A stretch of 17,220 bases of DNA, taken from the IMG/VR virus record IMGVR_UViG_2609460354_000003, one strand, 5' to 3'. Numbering within the stretch: the first letter of the stretch is position 1; each line of letters opens with the position of its first letter. The DNA is from a virus. Taxonomy: Duplodnaviria; Heunggongvirae; Uroviricota; Caudoviricetes. Made by a program: the position numbers and the translations under genes. The notes under the pieces were generated by a model. The model worked only from the letters and a program-made list of their open reading frames with translations, made no database searches and was not told the DNA's origin. This document shows positions 5,171 through 17,220 of the stretch, piece after piece.

Positions 5171-5682
5171 GCCGCGTTTCCTTCTTTCTTATTAACAATC
5201 ACACCGTCATATATTTCATTAAGGTGCCCTCTCAACTCCATGCGCCTTAATGCAGATAACATGTAATCGCATTCAACCTGCTTATTCCCAGTAAATGGCT
5301 TATCGTCAGGATTACCCCAACAGCAATTACCCCTGGGCCATCCATGTACTTTCCGTACTCTTCCGTTAACAACGTGAAGTAATCCCCAGCCGGGAGGTAA
5401 ATCCTCAACTGAAATAATTTCCGGCTCACTAATAAAGAATCGCCAGTCGCCCATGCCAAGTGAGGGATTTTTACGGAAACGCTTTTTTCTATCTGCCAAC
5501 AAGTCAGCACGAGAACACTTCGCCTCTATCAGGCATGATGCTGAATTTCTGAATCCCATAGCATCTGGCTGTTCTCCGGTACTGGTTACAGCAACAAAGC
5601 GGTCATGAAAGCAAACCTTGAACCCGTTGCGCTTAAGGAACTTGTACGCAATCTGACAGAGTTCGCGGTGTGTTAACGCCAT
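5167..5682 (-). CDS. Hypothetical protein with possible PD-(D/E)xK nuclease-like motif (171 aa)
   Basis: AGGAGAG SD, ATGA coupling. Motif ...DAMGF...CLIEAKCSRAD fits the D...ExK pattern; functional call is tentative. Confidence 0.5.
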   Translation of the reverse strand: MALTHRELCQIAYKFLKRNGFKVCFHDRFVAVTSTGEQPDAMGFRNSASCLIEAKCSRADLLADRKKRFRKNPSLGMGDWRFFISEPEIISVEDLPPGWGLLHVVNGRVRKVHGWPRGNCCWGNPDDKPFTGNKQVECDYMLSALRRMELRGHLNEIYDGVIVNKKEGNAA

Positions 5683-5683
5683 A

Positions 5684-6433
5684 TCACTCTCCTTTGATGC
5701 GAATGCCAGCGGCGCGGATTGCAGCGATGACTTCAGAAACTTTGTATGCCATTACCGTTTGGTAATCATCGTGAAAATCTGTTCGATGAAGCATGCTGCT
5801 ACGTTCCGGGAGCGATATTTCCCGAGCATCCAGTTCCTTAACGCGTTCCTCCAGTTCGTAGACCCTGCATTGTTCTCTATCATCAATCAGATATAACCCA
5901 AGACATTCGCTTTCTACCCAACCGCCAAAATCATGATCGTAACGCTCACATGAAAACTCACCGTCACCGTCCTTTGTTGGAATGGTGTAACTATCTAATG
6001 GGCCACCATATGTCGGCACATTCCCCAATGTTGGATGCTCAATCCACATGAAAAATGCACGTCCGGTTATTGGGCAAATATCTGGCCGCCATTGGTTACG
6101 AACAGCCTTGGTTTCGGATAATTCTTCAGCGTGTTGTTTTACTTCCTCAAGCTCAACTCTCAGCTTCCCTACCGTTAGCGCAATATCCTCGTTCTCCTGG
6201 TCGCGGCGTTTGATGTATTGCTGGTTCCTTTCCCGTTCATCCAGTAGTGCCAGCACGGTTTCTGGTCCGGTCAGAAATTTGAAGGCATTGAGCGCATCAA
6301 TATCCACACCGTAATCTTTAAGTTCCTGTTCACTTAACAAATCATCATCAGTTGGCAACATTAACAGGCGTTCCATTGCTGGAATTGCACGTTCTGCTGC
6401 CTCACGCAGTGCCTGGTAATTAATTTCGCTCAC
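5684..6433 (-). CDS. Ead/Ea22-like early-region protein (249 aa)
   Basis: N-terminus MSEINYQALREAAERA, acidic coiled-coil middle, position in early-left b-region. Family assigned from memory. Confidence 0.6.
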   Translation of the reverse strand: MSEINYQALREAAERAIPAMERLLMLPTDDDLLSEQELKDYGVDIDALNAFKFLTGPETVLALLDERERNQQYIKRRDQENEDIALTVGKLRVELEEVKQHAEELSETKAVRNQWRPDICPITGRAFFMWIEHPTLGNVPTYGGPLDSYTIPTKDGDGEFSCERYDHDFGGWVESECLGLYLIDDREQCRVYELEERVKELDAREISLPERSSMLHRTDFHDDYQTVMAYKVSEVIAAIRAAGIRIKGE

Positions 6434-7663: not shown

Positions 7664-8221
7664 TCATGCAGCCTCCCGACGGGCAAGAATCCTTGAGCCG
7701 AACGCCATCAACTCTCCACGATCAACGGTCGTAAAGTGGCAGTGTGTACGGGGGTATGGGTGCCAGATAATGAGCATCGAGCCTTTATTATTTCCACTGA
7801 CGGGTTTCTCAGTGAGTGGGTTAATAAATGCCAGTCGTCCTGCCGTGATGAATCTGACCTCACTGGCGGTTTGTATCGCTTCATGAAACCATCCGACAGA
7901 TGTGTCAGCAGGCAATAACATTACACATCCCACACTACTGAATTTGTTTTCAGTGGCTGCCTTTTTCACAAAAGGGGAAATATTGCTGTATGGTGGATTC
8001 AACCAGACATAACCAGAGGCATATCCCATTGCTTCAGGCCATGAAGTGGTTAATGTGTTCTGCTCCTGTGAGATAAAAAGCCGACATAGTCGGTTTTTTT
8101 CGCTGGCGGCAGCATCAAGTTGAAAAACGAACTCTGCATTAAGCGCAGCAAAAATCTCTGGTGGTGTGCGCCAGCTGTCGCGATGTTCGGCAGGAGTATT
8201 GCTTCCGGTGAAATCAGTCAT
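7664..8221 (-). CDS. Phage DNA N6-adenine methyltransferase (Dam-like, orphan)
   Basis: WRTPPEIF...FQLDAAAS and NPPY motifs. No restriction endonuclease candidate nearby. Confidence 0.85.
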   Translation of the reverse strand: MTDFTGSNTPAEHRDSWRTPPEIFAALNAEFVFQLDAAASEKNRLCRLFISQEQNTLTTSWPEAMGYASGYVWLNPPYSNISPFVKKAATENKFSSVGCVMLLPADTSVGWFHEAIQTASEVRFITAGRLAFINPLTEKPVSGNNKGSMLIIWHPYPRTHCHFTTVDRGELMAFGSRILARREAA

Positions 8222-10899: not shown

Positions 10900-11751
10900 T
10901 TACTGAATTTTCCTGAAAATCACAAGAGGAGTCATTCCGTATGCGGTGCTACTGCGGCCTGCTAATTCTTTTATCCCAGAAAGCATTTCTGTTATGCCAT
11001 CTTTCAAAGGGTTTGACGGGAACACAGACATATCGAAAAGTTCTTGGTCATATTCAGGAAGGGCATCGATAAAACCAAGTACGTACCATTCGCCTGGAAT
11101 ACTCCCACCATATTTTAGAACCATATCGTCTGGATTAATGGTGAGGTAATCACGATTAATAGTCATCCAAATGGTTTGACCAAAATCATTAATAAAATCA
11201 ACCTGCAATGTGTTCGGGACAATATTAAGTACTTCTTTCATCATGCCAAAAGTGACACCGGGCGAGACGGGGATTTCGTCAATACTATCATTCGTTTTTT
11301 TTGCTTTTGGCGGTAGCTTGGAGCGTTCTGCCTTTAGCATTTTTGCTACAAACGGGACGCTTTTTTGAAACATGGAAATATCAAAAATACGAACATGGCC
11401 TTTAGATAAAACAGTACTCCCAAGTCTTTCACCATTAAGTTCTGTTTTTATTAGATCATTTTCAGAAAGTTTATCTAAGAGGTTAATAGGAAGCGTCCAT
11501 GAAGCATCATAGCTTTTTTCATGGGTGTAATTGATAGTTTCCTCAACACCAAGTTTTGACTTAATGATTTTAATGTCAAAGCCGGCATCACTTACTGATT
11601 TGTCAACTTCAGCTGTTACCTGTCTGATAGATGTTATTACACCAGGCCCATGCATCTGTGCCAAGAGCGATGATGCCCGCTTGTTATCAACATATAGAAA
11701 ATCATACAATGAATCGGTGGTTTGTGATTCTTGCGCCGCGGATACGGTCAT
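10900..11751 (-). CDS. Unknown 283-aa protein in the cI-downstream (rex-like) position
   Basis: Complete ORF with AAGGAAGAG SD 7 nt before ATG 11751. AT-rich relative to neighbours. Same strand as cI, followed by a terminator. No motif recognised. Confidence 0.7.
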   Translation of the reverse strand: MTVSAAQESQTTDSLYDFLYVDNKRASSLLAQMHGPGVITSIRQVTAEVDKSVSDAGFDIKIIKSKLGVEETINYTHEKSYDASWTLPINLLDKLSENDLIKTELNGERLGSTVLSKGHVRIFDISMFQKSVPFVAKMLKAERSKLPPKAKKTNDSIDEIPVSPGVTFGMMKEVLNIVPNTLQVDFINDFGQTIWMTINRDYLTINPDDMVLKYGGSIPGEWYVLGFIDALPEYDQELFDMSVFPSNPLKDGITEMLSGIKELAGRSSTAYGMTPLVIFRKIQ

Positions 11752-12057: not shown

Positions 12058-12750
12058 TCAACCATGCTTCCTGTACGTCTGCGGCATGCTCCCGATGACT
12101 TTCCCGAAAATGAATACCCGGTTCATCTCGTCTTTCTCGATCGGGTCCCACGGTGAGTAACTCTTGTTATCAGAGATAACGAGCAGCTTATCCTTCATCA
12201 TTTGCAGGCGCTTTACATGGGCTGTGTCGTCATACAGAAACGCATAGATACCATCACCGTCGAAAGATTTAACCGTGATATCAACGAACAGCAGATCACC
12301 TGGTTCGATCGTTCCTGACATGCTGTCACCGCGTACGTTAATAATGCGGATATTTTCTGCCTTCCTACCATCGAACATGTGACGAGCATCGTCAAACGAG
12401 TACTCAACCGAACGTAGAACTTCTACAAACTCACGGTTGATGACTCCCGGCCCGGCACTGACTTCTATATCAAGAACGTCAATTTTGAAGTATTTGGAAT
12501 GGCTGACAGCAGGCTTCCCTGATTGTTGACCGTCATTTCTCATCGGGCCTATGCCTGATGAGAGCCATTCTGTTCGAACACCCAATGCATTAGCTATTTC
12601 AACAATTTTTGTTGAGCCGCGCGCGTTGCCGCTTGTCAGTCTCCAGATTGTGGGTTGAGCTACGCCAGACGCCTTTGCAAGAGCGCCTTGAGACATTCCA
12701 GATTGTTCCATCGCTAGGTTTAAGCGATCAGCAAGAGTTTCTTTTTTCAT
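12058..12750 (-). CDS. cI: CI-type prophage repressor (N-terminal HTH, C-terminal S24 LexA-like autopeptidase)
   Basis: HTH segment SQGALAKASGVAQPTIWRL; S24 features GDSMSGTIEPGD and a downstream Lys (HVKRL). Start set at ATG 12750 because the TTG at 12786 falls in the -35 of the predicted promoter. Confidence 0.88.
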   Translation of the reverse strand: MKKETLADRLNLAMEQSGMSQGALAKASGVAQPTIWRLTSGNARGSTKIVEIANALGVRTEWLSSGIGPMRNDGQQSGKPAVSHSKYFKIDVLDIEVSAGPGVINREFVEVLRSVEYSFDDARHMFDGRKAENIRIINVRGDSMSGTIEPGDLLFVDITVKSFDGDGIYAFLYDDTAHVKRLQMMKDKLLVISDNKSYSPWDPIEKDEMNRVFIFGKVIGSMPQTYRKHG

Positions 12751-12860
12751 AAGTTTTAATTTATACGCTTGCGTATTGATGGTCAAAACACGTTTTGCTA
12801 TTGCTTGGATTAATACGCATTGCTATTATTCATTCATTGCAATACCAATAGGAATTGATA
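12751..12860. promoter_or_regulatory. OR-like divergent promoter/operator region (PRM-like leftward, PR-like rightward)
   Basis: Minus strand TTGACC (12781-12786), 15-16 nt spacer, TATAAA (12760-12765), ending 8-9 nt before the cI ATG, implying a leaderless or near-leaderless cI mRNA. Plus strand TTGCTT (12801-12806), 17 nt, TATTAT (12824-12829). Three ATTGCTATT/ATTGCAAT operator-like motifs between 12796 and 12845. Confidence 0.6.
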
Positions 12861-13112: not shown

Positions 13113-13658
13113 ATGACTATGCAACCACTTACATACCAACAGACTAGCGGATTTAGCCCGACTGCGGTGATAAATCGTTCTCAAACAAAACAGGTGCCAG
13201 GCCACGAAAAAATCCGTGATGCCGTCCGCGCCTGGTCGGCTGCAGATAATCAGGATGTTGTTGCCGCACTCATTGTGAATGAGTATCGGGAGCAGGGCGG
13301 CGGCACCATCGATTTCCCTGATGATGTCAGCCGTGCACGCCAGAAGCTGTTCCGCTTCCTCGATAACAAATTCGATTCTGAAAAATACCGAAATAACGTG
13401 CGTGAACTGACCCCGGCAATTCTGGCGGTACTACCGCTGGAATATCGCGGTTACCTGGTTGAGCAGGATAGCTTCATGACTCGGTTGGCTGAAATGGAAA
13501 AGGAACTCAGTGAGGCAAAACAGGCTGTCATTCTCAACGCACCACGCCACCAGAAACTGAAGGAGATGAGTGAAGGCATTGTGTCGATGTTTCGTGTGGA
13601 CCCGGACCTGGCTGGTCCATTGATGGCGATGGTCACCACCATGCTGGGGGCAATATGA
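13113..13658 (+). CDS. CII-position regulatory protein (YdaT/CII-like, putative)
   Basis: 181-aa ORF between cro and O; start may instead be ATG 13119 (better SD spacing). Family assignment from memory, not computed. Confidence 0.45.
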   Translation: MTMQPLTYQQTSGFSPTAVINRSQTKQVPGHEKIRDAVRAWSAADNQDVVAALIVNEYREQGGGTIDFPDDVSRARQKLFRFLDNKFDSEKYRNNVRELTPAILAVLPLEYRGYLVEQDSFMTRLAEMEKELSEAKQAVILNAPRHQKLKEMSEGIVSMFRVDPDLAGPLMAMVTTMLGAI

Positions 13659-13744
13659 CAGGTTCAGAAATGGCGAAAGCCGGTCTGCGCGAACAGAACC
13701 GACTTTCAGGTGCAAATCGTAACACACTCATTGCGGGAGGAATT

Positions 13745-14674
13745 ATGGCAAACACTGCTGAGATATTCAATTTTCCAGTGCCGGATGCGGCACAAAAGGA
13801 GCCGCGCGTGGCAGATCTCGATGATGGTTATACGCGCATTGCAAATGAGTTGCTGGAAGCTGTGATGCTGGCCGGATTAACACAGCACCAGCTTCTGGTC
13901 TTCCTGGCTGTCATGCGCAAAACATATGGCTTTAATAAAAAACTGGATTGGGTGAGCAACGAGCAACTGTCCGAATTGACCGGGATATTGCCGCACAAGT
14001 GTTCTGCTGCAAAAAGTGTTCTGGTAAAGCGTGGGATTTTGATTCAGAGCGGGCGGAATATCGGTATTAATAATGTGGTCAGTGAATGGGCAACATTACC
14101 CGAATCAGGTAAGAAAAATAAAGTTTACCTGAAAGAGGTAAATTTACCTGAATCAGGTAAGAAAAGTTTACCCAAATCAGGTAAAGGCGTTTACCCGAAT
14201 CAGGTAAACACAAAAGACAAACTAACAAAAGACAATATAAAACCTTTTTCGTCCGAGAATTCTGGCGAATCCTCTGACCAACCAGAAAACGATCTTCCTG
14301 TGGTGAAACCAGATGCTGCAATTCAGAGCGGCAGCAAGTGGGGGACAGCAGAAGACCTGACCGCCGCAGAGTGGATGTTTGACATGGTGAAGACCATCGC
14401 GCCCTCAGCCAGAAAACCGAATTTTGCAGGGTGGGCTAACGATATCCGCCTGATGCGTGAACGTGACGGACGTAACCACCGCGACATGTGCGTGCTGTTC
14501 CGCTGGGCATGCCAGGACAACTTCTGGTCCGGTAACGTGCTGAGTCCGGCCAAACTCCGCGACAAGTGGACCCAGCTCGAAATCAACCGAAACAAGCAAC
14601 AGGCTGGCGTGACAGCCGGCAAACCAAAACTCGACCTGACGAACACTGACTGGATTTACGGGGTGGATTTATGA
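13745..14674 (+). CDS. O: Replication initiator O (divergent N-terminal iteron-binding domain, lambda-like C-terminal P-interaction domain)
   Basis: ATG 13745 preceded by GGGAGG. C-terminal half (SGESSDQPENDLPVVKPDAAIQSGSKWGTAEDLTAAEWMFDMVKTIAPSARKPNFAGWANDIRLMRERDGRNHRDMC...) matches lambda O as recalled. N-terminal domain differs. An upstream in-frame ATG at 13655 is an alternative start. Confidence 0.88.
   Translation: MANTAEIFNFPVPDAAQKEPRVADLDDGYTRIANELLEAVMLAGLTQHQLLVFLAVMRKTYGFNKKLDWVSNEQLSELTGILPHKCSAAKSVLVKRGILIQSGRNIGINNVVSEWATLPESGKKNKVYLKEVNLPESGKKSLPKSGKGVYPNQVNTKDKLTKDNIKPFSSENSGESSDQPENDLPVVKPDAAIQSGSKWGTAEDLTAAEWMFDMVKTIAPSARKPNFAGWANDIRLMRERDGRNHRDMCVLFRWACQDNFWSGNVLSPAKLRDKWTQLEINRNKQQAGVTAGKPKLDLTNTDWIYGVDL
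14096..14208. repeat. Origin of replication: five 18-bp iterons inside the O gene, followed by an AT-rich stretch
   Basis: Iterons TTACC(C/T)(G/A)A(A/T)(T/A)(C/G)AGGTAA(G/A) at 14096, 14125, 14144, 14168, 14191. AT-rich 14209-14250. Same architecture as lambda ori. Confidence 0.8.
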
Positions 14675-15372
14675 AAAACATCGCCGCACAGATGATTAAC
14701 TTTGACCGTGAGCAGATGCGCCGGATCGCCAACAACATGCCGGAACAGTACGAAGAAAAGCCGCAGGTACAGCAGATAGCGCAGATCATCAACGGTGTGT
14801 TCAGCCAGTTACTGGCAACTTTCCCGGCGAGCCTGGCTAACCGTGACCAGAACGAACTGAACGAAATCCGCCGCCAGTGGGTTCTGGCTTTTCGGGAAAA
14901 CGGGATCACCACAATGGAACAGGTTAACGCAGGAATGCGCGTAGCCCGTCGACAGAATCGACCATTTCTGCCATCACCTGGGCAGTTTGTTGCATGGTGC
15001 CGGGAAGAAGCATCCGTTATCGCCGGACTGCCAAACGTCAGCGAGCTGGTTGATATGGTTTACGAGTATTGCCGGAAGCGTGGCCTGTATCCGGATGCAG
15101 AGTCTTATCCGTGGAAATCAAACGCGCACTACTGGCTGGTTACCAACCTGTACCAGAACATGCGGGCCAATGCGCTGACTGACGCGGAATTACGGCGTAA
15201 GGCTGCCGATGAGCTGTCCTGTATGACCGCACGAATTAACCGTGGTGAGGCTATACCTGAACCAGTAAAACAACTTCCTGTCATGGGCGGTAGACCTCTA
15301 AATCGTGCACAGGCTCTGGCGAAGATCGCAGAAATCAAAGCGAAGTTCGGACTGAAAGGAGCAAGTGTATGA
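14671..15372 (+). CDS. P: Replication protein P (DnaB helicase loader)
   Basis: 233 aa MKNIAAQMINFDREQMRRIANNMPEQYEEKPQVQQIAQIINGVFSQLLATFPASLANRDQNE..., near-identical to lambda P as recalled. ATGA overlap with O stop. Confidence 0.95.
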   Translation: MKNIAAQMINFDREQMRRIANNMPEQYEEKPQVQQIAQIINGVFSQLLATFPASLANRDQNELNEIRRQWVLAFRENGITTMEQVNAGMRVARRQNRPFLPSPGQFVAWCREEASVIAGLPNVSELVDMVYEYCRKRGLYPDAESYPWKSNAHYWLVTNLYQNMRANALTDAELRRKAADELSCMTARINRGEAIPEPVKQLPVMGGRPLNRAQALAKIAEIKAKFGLKGASV

Positions 15373-15662
15373 CGGGAAAAGAAGCAATTATTCATTACCT
15401 GGGGACGCATAAGAGCTTCTGTGCGCAGGACGTAGCTGCGGTAACAGGCGCAACAGTAACCAGCATAAATCAGGCTGCGGCTAAAATGGCGCGGACAGGA
15501 ATCTTAGTCATTGATGGTAAGGTCTGGCGAACGGTGTATTACCGGTTCGCTACCAGGGAAGAACGGGAAGGAAAGGTGAGTACGAATCTGATTTTCAAGG
15601 AGTGTCGCCAGAGTGCCGCGATGAAACGGGTGTTGGCGGTATATGGGAGGACTACAGCATAA
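15369..15662 (+). CDS. ren: Ren protein
   Basis: 97 aa MTGKEAIIHYLGTHKSFCAQDVAAVTGATVTSINQAAAKMAR... matches lambda Ren as recalled. ATGA overlap with P stop. Confidence 0.9.
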   Translation: MTGKEAIIHYLGTHKSFCAQDVAAVTGATVTSINQAAAKMARTGILVIDGKVWRTVYYRFATREEREGKVSTNLIFKECRQSAAMKRVLAVYGRTTA

Positions 15663-15742
15663 GCATAACTTATGGATTATATGGAAAACTGGTAATTATG
15701 CTCTTTTCTTATGAAAAATTAAGAGAAGTTTTCGCTGGCGTT

Positions 15743-16141
15743 TTATTTGTTCTGTTTTTTCTTGCGGGTTATTCTGATTTGTTTTGATTTGATTTTTTCT
15801 GACAAAAGTAGGGAAAAAATATGTCGCAAGTACTTTCTGTCTTTACCTCCTAAATTACATTCTCTATCAAATGTTGCCATAGTTATGACCCCAGTTTTAT
15901 ATAGTGTTTCAGCAATTTTTCTGTAGTTTTTTTCTCGCAAAATTGAAGAGTTTTTCTTTGCTGTATTTTCAAGGCTATCTCCTTGTGGTTTAAGACCATT
16001 TGGGCCAAAAAACGTTGTGGATACTGCTGCACTTGTTGTCCGTTTTTTTTGGCCCATTTGGATAGTACTTGGGAGAGGCATGATTTTAATACGCATATAA
16101 ATAACTCCTCTATCAATTGGATTTTGGGAAAATGTTAACAT
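15743..16141 (-). CDS. Unknown 132-aa protein translationally coupled to the Mnt-like repressor
   Basis: ATG 16141..16139 overlaps the repressor stop (TAATG). Lys-rich C-terminus. A competing 77-aa frame (15883..16116) exists, so frame choice is uncertain. Confidence 0.35.
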   Translation of the reverse strand: MLTFSQNPIDRGVIYMRIKIMPLPSTIQMGQKKRTTSAAVSTTFFGPNGLKPQGDSLENTAKKNSSILREKNYRKIAETLYKTGVITMATFDRECNLGGKDRKYLRHIFSLLLSEKIKSKQIRITRKKKQNK

Positions 16142-16458
16142 TAATCATGATTAAGGAGTAATTTTAAATCTTCCAATAAAATTTGTTTAAACTCTTGTGT
16201 TCTATGATCGATATACAACGCAAGTTTGCTTGCATTATCTTCCAGGTCACGTATCTCTCTGTCACCTCGAATAAACCCAACTAAATTTAAACGTTTAGAT
16301 AGTTCAGAACTTCCTTCTATGGCATCTTGGAGTATTTGAATGATTTCTGAATTCATTGAGCGCCCGTTTCGTTTGGCTCGTTCAGCTATAGCTTCACGCA
16401 TCCCATCAGGGAAACGGAGGTTAAACTTATCGTAGTCTTTTACTTGTTTGTCAGCCAT
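16141..16458 (-). CDS. mnt: Mnt-like ribbon-helix-helix repressor (Arc/MetJ superfamily)
   Basis: From ATG 16458: MADKQVKDYDKFNLRFPDGMREAIAERAKRNGRSMNSEIIQILQDAI... The core FNLRFP...NGRSMNSEIIQILQDAI closely parallels P22 Mnt as recalled, with a C-terminal extension as in Mnt. Confidence 0.72.
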   Translation of the reverse strand: MADKQVKDYDKFNLRFPDGMREAIAERAKRNGRSMNSEIIQILQDAIEGSSELSKRLNLVGFIRGDREIRDLEDNASKLALYIDHRTQEFKQILLEDLKLLLNHD

Positions 16459-16557
16459 TGGAACCCCCAAAAAAATGAATGGTGCCATATTGCCACATCA
16501 ATTCAATGGTGGCATTATGGCCTCATGGTGTCATTGTGGCCTCATGAGGTTATGTCA
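16459..16557. promoter_or_regulatory. Divergent promoter/operator region between Mnt-like and Arc-like genes
   Basis: Inverted repeat TGCCACAT...ATGGTGGCA (about 16491-16515), direct repeats ATTATGGCCTCATGG / ATTGTGGCCTCATGA, and the 10-bp palindrome CCTCATGAGG. Confidence 0.5.
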
Positions 16558-16716
16558 ATGGAAAAGAAAGAGGTAAAAATTACCCTTCGCTATCCGCAAA
16601 AAGTGAAGGATGAATTCAAGCGAATTGCTCAGGAGGAAGGGATGTCTGAGAACGCAGCTATTGTTCAGGCGCTTGTATGGGCATTGAAATTTAGAGCACG
16701 GATACATGCTCGCTAG
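16558..16716 (+). CDS. arc: Arc-like ribbon-helix-helix repressor (52 aa)
   Basis: ATG 16558 with GAGG SD 8 nt upstream. MEKKEVKITLRYPQKVKDEFKRIAQEEGMSENAAIVQALVWAL fits the RHH beta-strand/two-helix pattern. Immediately precedes the antirepressor gene. Confidence 0.65.
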   Translation: MEKKEVKITLRYPQKVKDEFKRIAQEEGMSENAAIVQALVWALKFRARIHAR

Positions 16717-16786
16717 AAACAGCGAAGCCCCACTGGCGGCAACCTTAGGGGCTTCTATCGAAAATAACCGCGAAGGAAATATCGAC

Positions 16787-17220
16787 ATGAGTATTGTAGC
16801 AACATCAGATCTGAACTTCCAAGGTGAAGCACTAGTGCCAGTGGCAAATATTGCCGGAATATGGCTAACTTCATCCAACCTAGCAAGAGCACTGAAGTAT
16901 TCGAATAGTCGCGCAGTCACGATGATTTACAACAAATATGCTGACGAATTTTCCAGTAGTATGACTAGAGTGCTTGAAGTCAGTACCTCAGAGAATGATG
17001 TCGAGGTACTTGATCTGAGTACCTCGAAAAGTACTCGAAACTTGAAGAAGAAAGTACGCGTTTTCTCTCTCCGCGGAGCCCATTTGATCGCCATGTTCGC
17101 CCGCACTCCTGTAGCCAAAGAGTTCCGCCGTTGGGTTCTGGATATTCTCGATCGAGAAGTTCAACAATCCCCAATCATAAAACAATTCACTGATAACGAA
17201 CTTTGCACACTTGCTTGGTT
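16787..17220 (+). CDS. ant: Antirepressor (Bro-N/AntA-family N-terminal domain), 5' part; continues past window end
   Basis: Hand translation from ATG 16787 (AAGGA SD 9 nt upstream): MSIVATSDLNFQGEALVPVANIAGIWLTSSNLARALKYSNSR...RVFSLRGAHLIAMFARTPVAKEFRRWVLDILDREVQQ. No stop before 17220. Absent from the ORF track because it is open-ended. Confidence 0.7.
   Translation, partial: MSIVATSDLNFQGEALVPVANIAGIWLTSSNLARALKYSNSRAVTMIYNKYADEFSSSMTRVLEVSTSENDVEVLDLSTSKSTRNLKKKVRVFSLRGAHLIAMFARTPVAKEFRRWVLDILDREVQQSPIIKQFTDNELCTLAW

Follow-up and report, generated by a model that had tools for sequence, protein, structure and literature searches.

A probable immI-type antirepressor cassette in the nin region of a lambda-like Escherichia coli prophage

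Results

Genes and features downstream of ren

The virus record IMGVR_UViG_2609460354_000003 is a stretch of 17,220 nt (referred to in its entirety as the window) that corresponds to the early region of a lambda-like E. coli prophage, with red-type recombination genes present. The section under study, positions 15663-17220, starts at the base immediately after the ren stop codon and contains four genes, here called ORF117, mnt-like, arc-like and ant, together with one antisense RNA (Table 1). It probably carries an immI-type "ant moron", i.e. a portable, self-regulated antirepressor cassette homologous to mnt-arc-sar-ant of phage P22, in the nin region. The original prediction had placed a P22 immI-like mnt/arc/ant module directly downstream of ren; the module is present, but ORF117 lies between it and ren, and the first 480 bp of the section, the ORF117 part, are not immI.

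Table 1. Features of the cassette and of its surroundings in the window.
Feature	Position	Strand	Basis
CI repressor, helix-turn-helix (HTH) + Peptidase_S24	12058-12786	minus	Pfam domains
O	13655-14674		replication block
P	14671-15372		replication block
ren, final gene of the lambda-like replication block	15369-15662	plus	PHROG 142 Ren-like, E 4e-42
Left mosaic junction and AT-rich spacer	15647-15742		end of lambda homology; GC 0.36 then 0.33
ORF117, 117-aa basic helical orphan with good Shine-Dalgarno (SD) sequence	15743-16096	minus	44 nt downstream of the mnt-like gene, same strand
mnt-like gene, 105 aa, N-terminal ribbon-helix-helix (RHH; Arc family) + helical C-terminal extension	16141-16458	minus	Pfam Arc PF03869
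Three iterated ~20-bp operator-like units	O1 16479-16498, O2 16506-16526, O3 16525-16545		repeat search
Pant-like promoter TTGCCA-17-CATTAT, upstream TG	16490-16518	plus	promoter scan
arc-like gene, 52-aa RHH repressor, first gene of the ant operon	16558-16716	plus	Pfam Arc, PHROG 582
sar-like cis-antisense RNA, complementary to the ant ribosome-binding site	~16714-16786	minus	Rfam, folding, covariation
ant, 5' 144 of 222 codons, cut by the window end	16787-17220	plus	Bro-N; ATG 16787
Psar-like promoter TTGGAA-18-TACAAT, TG upstream, inside ant codons 3-12	16793-16822	minus	scan, conservation

The divergent pair of RHH repressors and the Bro-N antirepressor that had been predicted were all recovered, and the two RHH proteins do not come from unrelated families: both score above the Pfam Arc threshold and both match their P22 counterparts directly. 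The Mnt-like protein reaches 71.5 bits against a cutoff of 20.4 (E 5e-20), and its residues 6-54 are 47% identical to residues 2-50 of P22 Mnt (E 1e-14); hhalign gave a probability of 98.5% for this pair, aligning residues 8-56 and nothing further. The Arc-like protein scores 22.6 bits with the same Pfam model, is 36% identical to P22 Arc (E 2e-9) and belongs to PHROG 582, the Arc-like repressors (E 4e-9). Ant contains a Bro-N domain (PF02498) at residues 25-120, with 38.6 bits against a gathering cutoff of 25.6 (E 1.7e-9), and its six best PHROG matches are all "anti-repressor Ant" families (E 8e-33). The full-length copy of Ant in the phage genome PhiR5_1 has Bro-N (E 4.9e-9) followed by P22_AR_C (E 1.7e-16). 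When the section was compared with P22 immI, gene order and orientation agreed with the annotation of NC_002371. The homology of the parts and their architecture can thus be read directly from the comparison.

Among relatives of the Mnt-like protein the N-terminal RHH domain is almost invariant and the C-terminal part is variable, giving total lengths of 81-140 aa. An AlphaFold2 model, built on an alignment of database homologues, predicts a long C-terminal helix at residues 75-103 with a confidence score (pLDDT) near 90, which could possibly suit oligomerisation. Full-length relatives, 50-69% identical, occur in Enterobacter, Cronobacter, Klebsiella and others; the closest of them, from Enterobacter, belongs to a mnt-arc-ant cassette inside a tail operon, with a P22_AR_N-type Ant. 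In every case compared, the Mnt-like gene is divergent from arc-ant. The C-termini are shuffled in L005, L013, L014, L026, L040, L042 and other loci, many of them ending in KKPT or KKK; P22 Mnt ends in KKTT and the protein of the window in LLNHD.

The control region between the divergent genes

The gap between the divergent start codons measures 99 bp (16459-16557). Within 56 bp of the DNA between the mnt-like and arc-like genes there are exactly three copies of ATGGTGNCAT, and a 21-mer consensus, ATGGTGNCATTNTGGCCTCAT, is present twice, compared with 0.01 copies expected. O1 and O2 together also form an inverted repeat (18 nt, 83%). Operator-like palindromes had been predicted here; the repeats do lie between the divergent genes, but they are better called three iterated ~20-bp pseudo-symmetric units. 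The Pant-like promoter is overlapped by these units at its -35, at its -10 and around its start, a layout that would parallel that of the operators over Pant in P22 immI; 68 nt separate its -35 from the arc ATG, as they do for Pant in the P22 annotation. The Pant-like promoter and O1/O2 are kept in the E. coli, Edwardsiella and Shiga toxin (Stx)-phage loci whose Mnt-like proteins have the same N-terminus; where the Mnt β-strand residues differ, the repeats differ too.

The Gifsy antirepressors are small LexA-controlled proteins. LexA control of this type was rejected for ant, as 15663-17220 contains no CTGT-N8-ACAG with one mismatch or fewer; unlike the Gifsy type, the cassette lacks a LexA box and would be controlled by RHH repressors and an antisense RNA.

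A predicted sar-like antisense RNA in the arc-ant gap

The 70-nt gap between arc and ant is filled by a predicted antisense RNA that the original prediction had not mentioned. The Rfam model RF00262 (sar) matches over its full length (1-68) at 16721-16785 on the minus strand, with 34.0 bits (E 1.5e-4); P22 sar itself scores 97.8 bits. Matches to the same model, in the same gap and on the same strand and again sub-threshold (29.5-37.6 bits), were found in four related loci, i.e. those of E. coli JCKP02, Klebsiella phage ST11-VIM1phi8.1, Edwardsiella phage GF-2 and the Stx-type phage phi330. Because such RNAs fall below the Rfam threshold, they are left unannotated.

Using Arc-like proteins as bait, we gathered 28 further loci from IMG/VR and obtained 18 different sequences of the arc-ant gap. 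All 18 variants form two hairpins on the minus strand, with stem sequences that differ from one variant to another: hairpin 1 has the complement of the ant SD sequence (anti-SD) in its loop, and hairpin 2 is GC-rich and is followed by a run of U. The RNA of the window has a minimum free energy of -24.6 kcal/mol (z -2.45). MAFFT failed to align correctly both hairpin 1 and those stem variants that contain an insertion, and we therefore judged hairpin 1 by individual folds and restricted the formal test to hairpin 2, on a covariance-model alignment. In this alignment 98.6% of the hairpin 2 cells are paired, compensatory changes are seen at 6 of the 12 pairs, and covariation scores 0.444, compared with 0.230 when shuffled (none of 500 shuffles reaches 0.444) and at most 0.146 when the partners are slid. 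In 36 of the hairpin 2 cells the pair is G.U; in a plus-strand RNA these cells would hold A.C mismatches, and the fold is therefore specific to the minus-strand transcript.

The -10 of the Psar-like promoter lies at ant ATG+6..+11, which is the position annotated for the -10 of P22 Psar, where a ~70-nt antisense RNA likewise occupies the arc-ant gap. TAnAnT is found at this offset in 17 of the 18 variants, mostly with the TG extension. Both the conservation of the promoters and the covariation of the RNA are thus direct observations.

The start codon and the activity of Ant

PGAP and the phage annotators consistently start ant at an upstream ATG (16706 here; ATG or GTG elsewhere) that overlaps the arc stop codon. 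This start adds 27-28 codons, which are read across the target of the sar-like RNA. The upstream frame is open in 14 of the 17 non-P22 variants and is broken in L030 and L042, as also in P22, whereas every variant has the downstream ATG with its SD sequence and, in the loop of the RNA, the anti-SD that matches it. We therefore prefer 16787, which is probably the true start, with an arc-coupled start at 16706 as the possible alternative.

The window encodes a plausible target for Ant, the CI protein with HTH and Peptidase_S24 domains (Table 1), and by homology Ant would be expected to bind and inactivate a repressor of this type. P22 Ant inactivates the P22 and lambda repressors (PMC3064807), and phi24B Ant, which shares its C-terminal domain, promotes efficient induction rather than the lifting of superinfection immunity (PMC3064807). 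The original prediction had made the presence of a Bro-N/antirepressor domain in the downstream gene a point on which it could fail; Bro-N was found, and the full-length form adds P22_AR_C. The N-terminal domain is nevertheless a swapped one, which may leave room for another activity. The cassette might then be under immI-type control and yet encode, in place of a CI antirepressor, a Bro/KilA/Rha-type protein that acts as a DNA-binding regulator or in host takeover; tight control would be needed because its expression would be toxic or untimely. In keeping with this, the PhiR5_1 copy is annotated "Rha protein", the identity between Ant and P22 Ant is 22% overall with an alignment confined to the C-terminal part (E 9e-6), and close relatives of the cassette adjoin CI proteins with different N-terminal domains. 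However, P22_AR_C is common to this Ant, to P22 Ant and to phi24B Ant, the last of which affects induction; the best PHROG matches are antirepressor families; and the entire apparatus that controls ant is conserved, sar included. We regard a non-antirepressor role as improbable on this evidence, and antirepressor activity, on the analogy with P22 and phi24B, as the reading to be preferred.

Distribution of the cassette

The same DNA is found, at 99.7% identity, in the deposited phage genome PhiR5_1, whose host is listed as E. coli C. Of 5426 complete E. coli genomes, 5 have the exact left half, comprising ORF117 and the Mnt-like C-terminus; parts of the right half are present in 828, and about 15% of complete E. 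coli genomes have related cassettes. In PhiR5_1, PSS-04, 2017.02.03CC and JCKP02 the cassette is flanked by ren on one side and by ninB/ybcN on the other. Since ninB/ybcN is kept beyond the cassette in these elements, near-identical ones included, the cassette was inserted and did not replace ninB; the original prediction was right that AT-rich cassette DNA follows ren, but not that it stands where lambda has ninB. Related cassettes are found inside the tail operon of Stx2c-type Pankowvirus phages and of Enterobacter prophages.

The rarity of the exact variant could be taken to mean that the cassette is an inert remnant, carried along after its function was lost. At least 4 of the 5 genomes have it in defective prophages, which are of two kinds, one with ren interrupted by IS1 and O by an internal stop, the other a remnant by intD that lacks cI, and degraded ant morons are frequent in P22-like phages (PMC2629481). 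Against this, all of the reading frames of the cassette are intact, conservation extends over the promoters, the SD/anti-SD pair and, with compensatory changes, the two hairpins of the RNA, and the cassette is present in a deposited phage genome, so that loss of function appears very unlikely.

Two of the E. coli loci deserve description in their own right. In 2017.02.03CC (argU/intD) the cassette, with four ORFs annotated as intact, is in a defective prophage at the DLP12 site, where intD abuts a truncated ren; no cI was found within the 13.8 kb fetched around it, and Ant could therefore act there in trans only. PSS-04 has the same cassette, with IS1 in ren and an O gene containing an internal stop.

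ORF117

ORF117 probably rides on the mnt-like transcript from Pmnt. It gave no family match in Pfam, PHROG, PADLOC or NCBIfam, and its homologues are few: a search of 5.8e9 proteins gave 12, and a search of 1.84e9 representatives gave 5 clusters, of which one is a spurious tandem-repeat match. Copies of equal length, 50-61% identical, stand alone in Hafnia and Enterobacter lambdoid prophages, where they always oppose the flanking early genes and have no RHH neighbour, and similarity between copies at the DNA level is limited to the coding part. ORF117 is an independent moron; it does not belong to immI, nor is it a toxin paired with the Mnt-like protein.

A toxin-antitoxin or "plasmid stability" pair of RHH antitoxin and small basic toxin, unrelated to ant control, is the least credible of the alternatives and was rejected because the two genes do not co-occur elsewhere. 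The arrangement (an RHH gene followed after 44 nt by a small gene in the same orientation, with a longer ORF117 reading that starts at an ATG overlapping the mnt stop, TAATG), the JGI name "plasmid stability protein" for the RHH protein and its FitA-like RHH Pfam match are all compatible with such a pair. Against it, the Hafnia and Enterobacter prophages carry ORF117 homologues without any RHH gene, ORF117 is missing from the mnt-arc-ant cassettes in which full-length Mnt-like relatives are found, the Mnt-like gene and arc-ant diverge in every case, and the pair has no PADLOC or Pfam toxin match.

In E. coli JCKP02 (1418-2795), the same ren/ninB site shows a ren that is truncated and encodes a GNAT acetyltransferase gene product, and the Mnt-like gene is followed by another gene, of 160 aa. 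This last difference suggests that the slot downstream of mnt is a hot spot for passenger genes.

The left junction and the surrounding early region

The lambda-like replication module (the C-terminus of O, P and ren) that had been predicted is borne out by a blastn match to lambda DNA spanning 14208-15646 at 94.4%. This match ends 16 nt ahead of the ren stop, i.e. within the last five codons of ren, and when other lambdoid phages were aligned to locate the breakpoint the matching ended at 15637-15646. The turn to AT-rich DNA past ren is likewise real: GC is 0.49-0.55 in O/P/ren, 0.33-0.36 at 15600-16350 and 0.41-0.46 beyond. The mosaic breakpoint is thus supported by both the end of homology and the fall in GC, but its position is inside the last ren codons and not after the stop, where it had been predicted.

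Some other features of the early region are recorded here. From about residue 97 onwards, through the linker and the S24 domain to the C-terminus, the CI of the window is identical to the CI proteins of PhiR5_1 (5363-6118 in its locus) and PSS-04 (726-1415 in its locus); it differs from them in the N-terminal HTH domain, giving a hybrid immunity allele beside the same ant cassette. A perfect CTGT-N8-ACAG (LexA-box-like), CTGTGTCGTCATACAG, is located at 12222-12237 within the cI coding region; with one mismatch or fewer, 11 such matches are present in the whole window, compared with 5 expected. The places of cro and cII are held by YdaS-like (PF15943, 12855-13088) and YdaT-like (PF06254, 13113-13658) genes, not by lambda-type Cro and CII. 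Between the recombination genes and cI there is a gene for a 283-aa DUF6414 protein (10900-11751, minus), at a position where PhiR5_1 has genes annotated as HipA/HipD, so that this looks like a variable accessory or defence slot. The early-left region encodes a DUF968/HNH-like protein and a Dam-type N6-adenine methyltransferase (1018-2064 and 7664-8221, minus).

Discussion

Relationship to P22 immI and to other ant morons

The cassette shares with P22 immI a divergent pair of Mnt-type and Arc-type RHH genes, with arc first in the ant operon, an Ant protein with P22_AR_C and a small extra ORF downstream of mnt (orf59a in P22, which is unrelated to ORF117), in addition to the resemblances in promoter position and antisense RNA described above. 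It differs in its location, since immI of P22 is flanked by genes 16 and 9 of the late operon and the present cassette is in the nin region of a lambda-like siphovirus prophage, and in the absence of sieA, which P22 has.

A number of observations weigh against equating the cassette with immI. Ant of P22 consists of P22_AR_N and P22_AR_C, whereas the N-terminal domain of the full-length PhiR5_1 Ant is Bro-N, and P22_AR_N was not found in it. The Mnt tetramerisation domain (Repressor_Mnt, PF11423), which scores 72.9 bits in P22 Mnt, was absent from the Mnt-like protein in Pfam searches at E<=0.1, and neither Pfam nor hhalign detected C-terminal homology to P22 Mnt. P22 has distinct Oarc and Omnt operators whereas here there are three related ~20-bp repeats. 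No convincing minus-strand sigma-70 Pmnt was seen in 16459-16557, including the P22-equivalent position, either by scan or by reading the sequence. The RF00262 score of 34 bits is below the gathering score of 43. Finally, the promoter scan taken by itself performed at chance level, with 4 promoters found compared with 3.8 expected; the case for the Psar-like promoter therefore rests on its positional identity with P22 and on its conservation. These points lower our confidence without removing it, and an immI-type cassette is still the interpretation that we favour strongly.

The "ant moron" concept was introduced for a variable insert in the late operon of P22-like phages, which often carry degraded copies (PMC2629481). 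The ant morons of epsilon34, HK620, Sf6 and others (Villafane et al. 2008, PMC2629481) resemble the present cassette in being variable, independently expressed mnt/arc/ant inserts, in which genetic flux is high and the passenger genes, of unknown function, vary; they differ in that they occupy a podovirus late operon, and this one the early-right operon of a lambda-like phage. The cassettes of the Stx2c/Pankowvirus phages (2851, 1717, Stx2a_WGPS6, phi330) and of Enterobacter prophages have the same gene order and a sar-like RNA, and their DNA is 85% identical over the Mnt-like N-terminus and control region (16321-16540), but they lie between minor tail genes, have other arc and ant alleles and lack ORF117. 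A further parallel, drawn by description, is phi24B Ant (Fogg et al. 2011, PMC3064807), an antirepressor of an E. coli lambdoid phage with the C-terminal domain of P22 Ant.

Proposed mode of action

By analogy with P22, we propose that in the lysogen the Mnt-like repressor, made from a leftward transcript that probably carries ORF117 too, would bind the iterated operators and hold the Pant-like promoter shut. Upon infection or loss of Mnt, which are the triggers that the analogy suggests, Pant would fire and both the Arc-like repressor and Ant would be made; the Arc-like repressor would then shut Pant again, so that Ant would appear as a pulse. The ~70-nt antisense RNA, transcribed from the promoter in the first ant codons, would pair with the ant ribosome-binding site and block translation. 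As the cassette lies in the PR operon, rightward read-through would transcribe ant whatever Pant does, and a block at the level of translation would be especially pertinent at this position, where PR read-through transcripts cross the cassette and should be covered by it as well. Ant (Bro-N and P22_AR_C) would bind and inactivate an S24-type CI, either that of its own prophage or that of a co-resident lambdoid prophage, leading to derepression that is independent of RecA. In this respect it would resemble the Gifsy antirepressors, which are reported by Lemire et al. (2011, PMC3121763) to act in trans, induce lambdoid prophages and mediate cross-talk between co-resident prophages. The second immunity layer for the prophage that had been predicted would follow from the same analogy, as would the assignment of the operators to the two repressors.

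A more far-reaching scheme can be put forward only as a speculation, and one that we doubt. The cassette would be a free-moving, self-contained prophage inducer, moving between the nin region, siphovirus tail operons and podovirus late operons, and kept intact with its antisense RNA even in prophages that lack cI, where it would act only in trans on other lambdoid prophages, including Stx prophages. ORF117, co-expressed with the maintenance repressor, would then be a new exclusion or defence factor expressed in the lysogen, at the position of sieA in P22.

Significance

The cassette is real but is an ordinary member of a known and widespread type, already annotated generically in RefSeq, and it leaves the knowledge of how such modules work unchanged. 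What it adds that is of some interest is the conserved sar-like RNA, the ant start that is likely to have been set wrongly and the orphan ORF117, and nothing else. Of these, the RNA indicates that sar-like antisense RNAs reach well beyond the P22-like podoviruses. For a lambda-like prophage, a self-controlled antirepressor would provide a second route by which repression could be lifted, without RecA-mediated cleavage of CI and with a reach that may extend to co-resident prophages. The cassette may therefore be relevant to cross-talk between prophages and, in the case of the related cassettes in Stx phages, to the induction of toxin-encoding phages.

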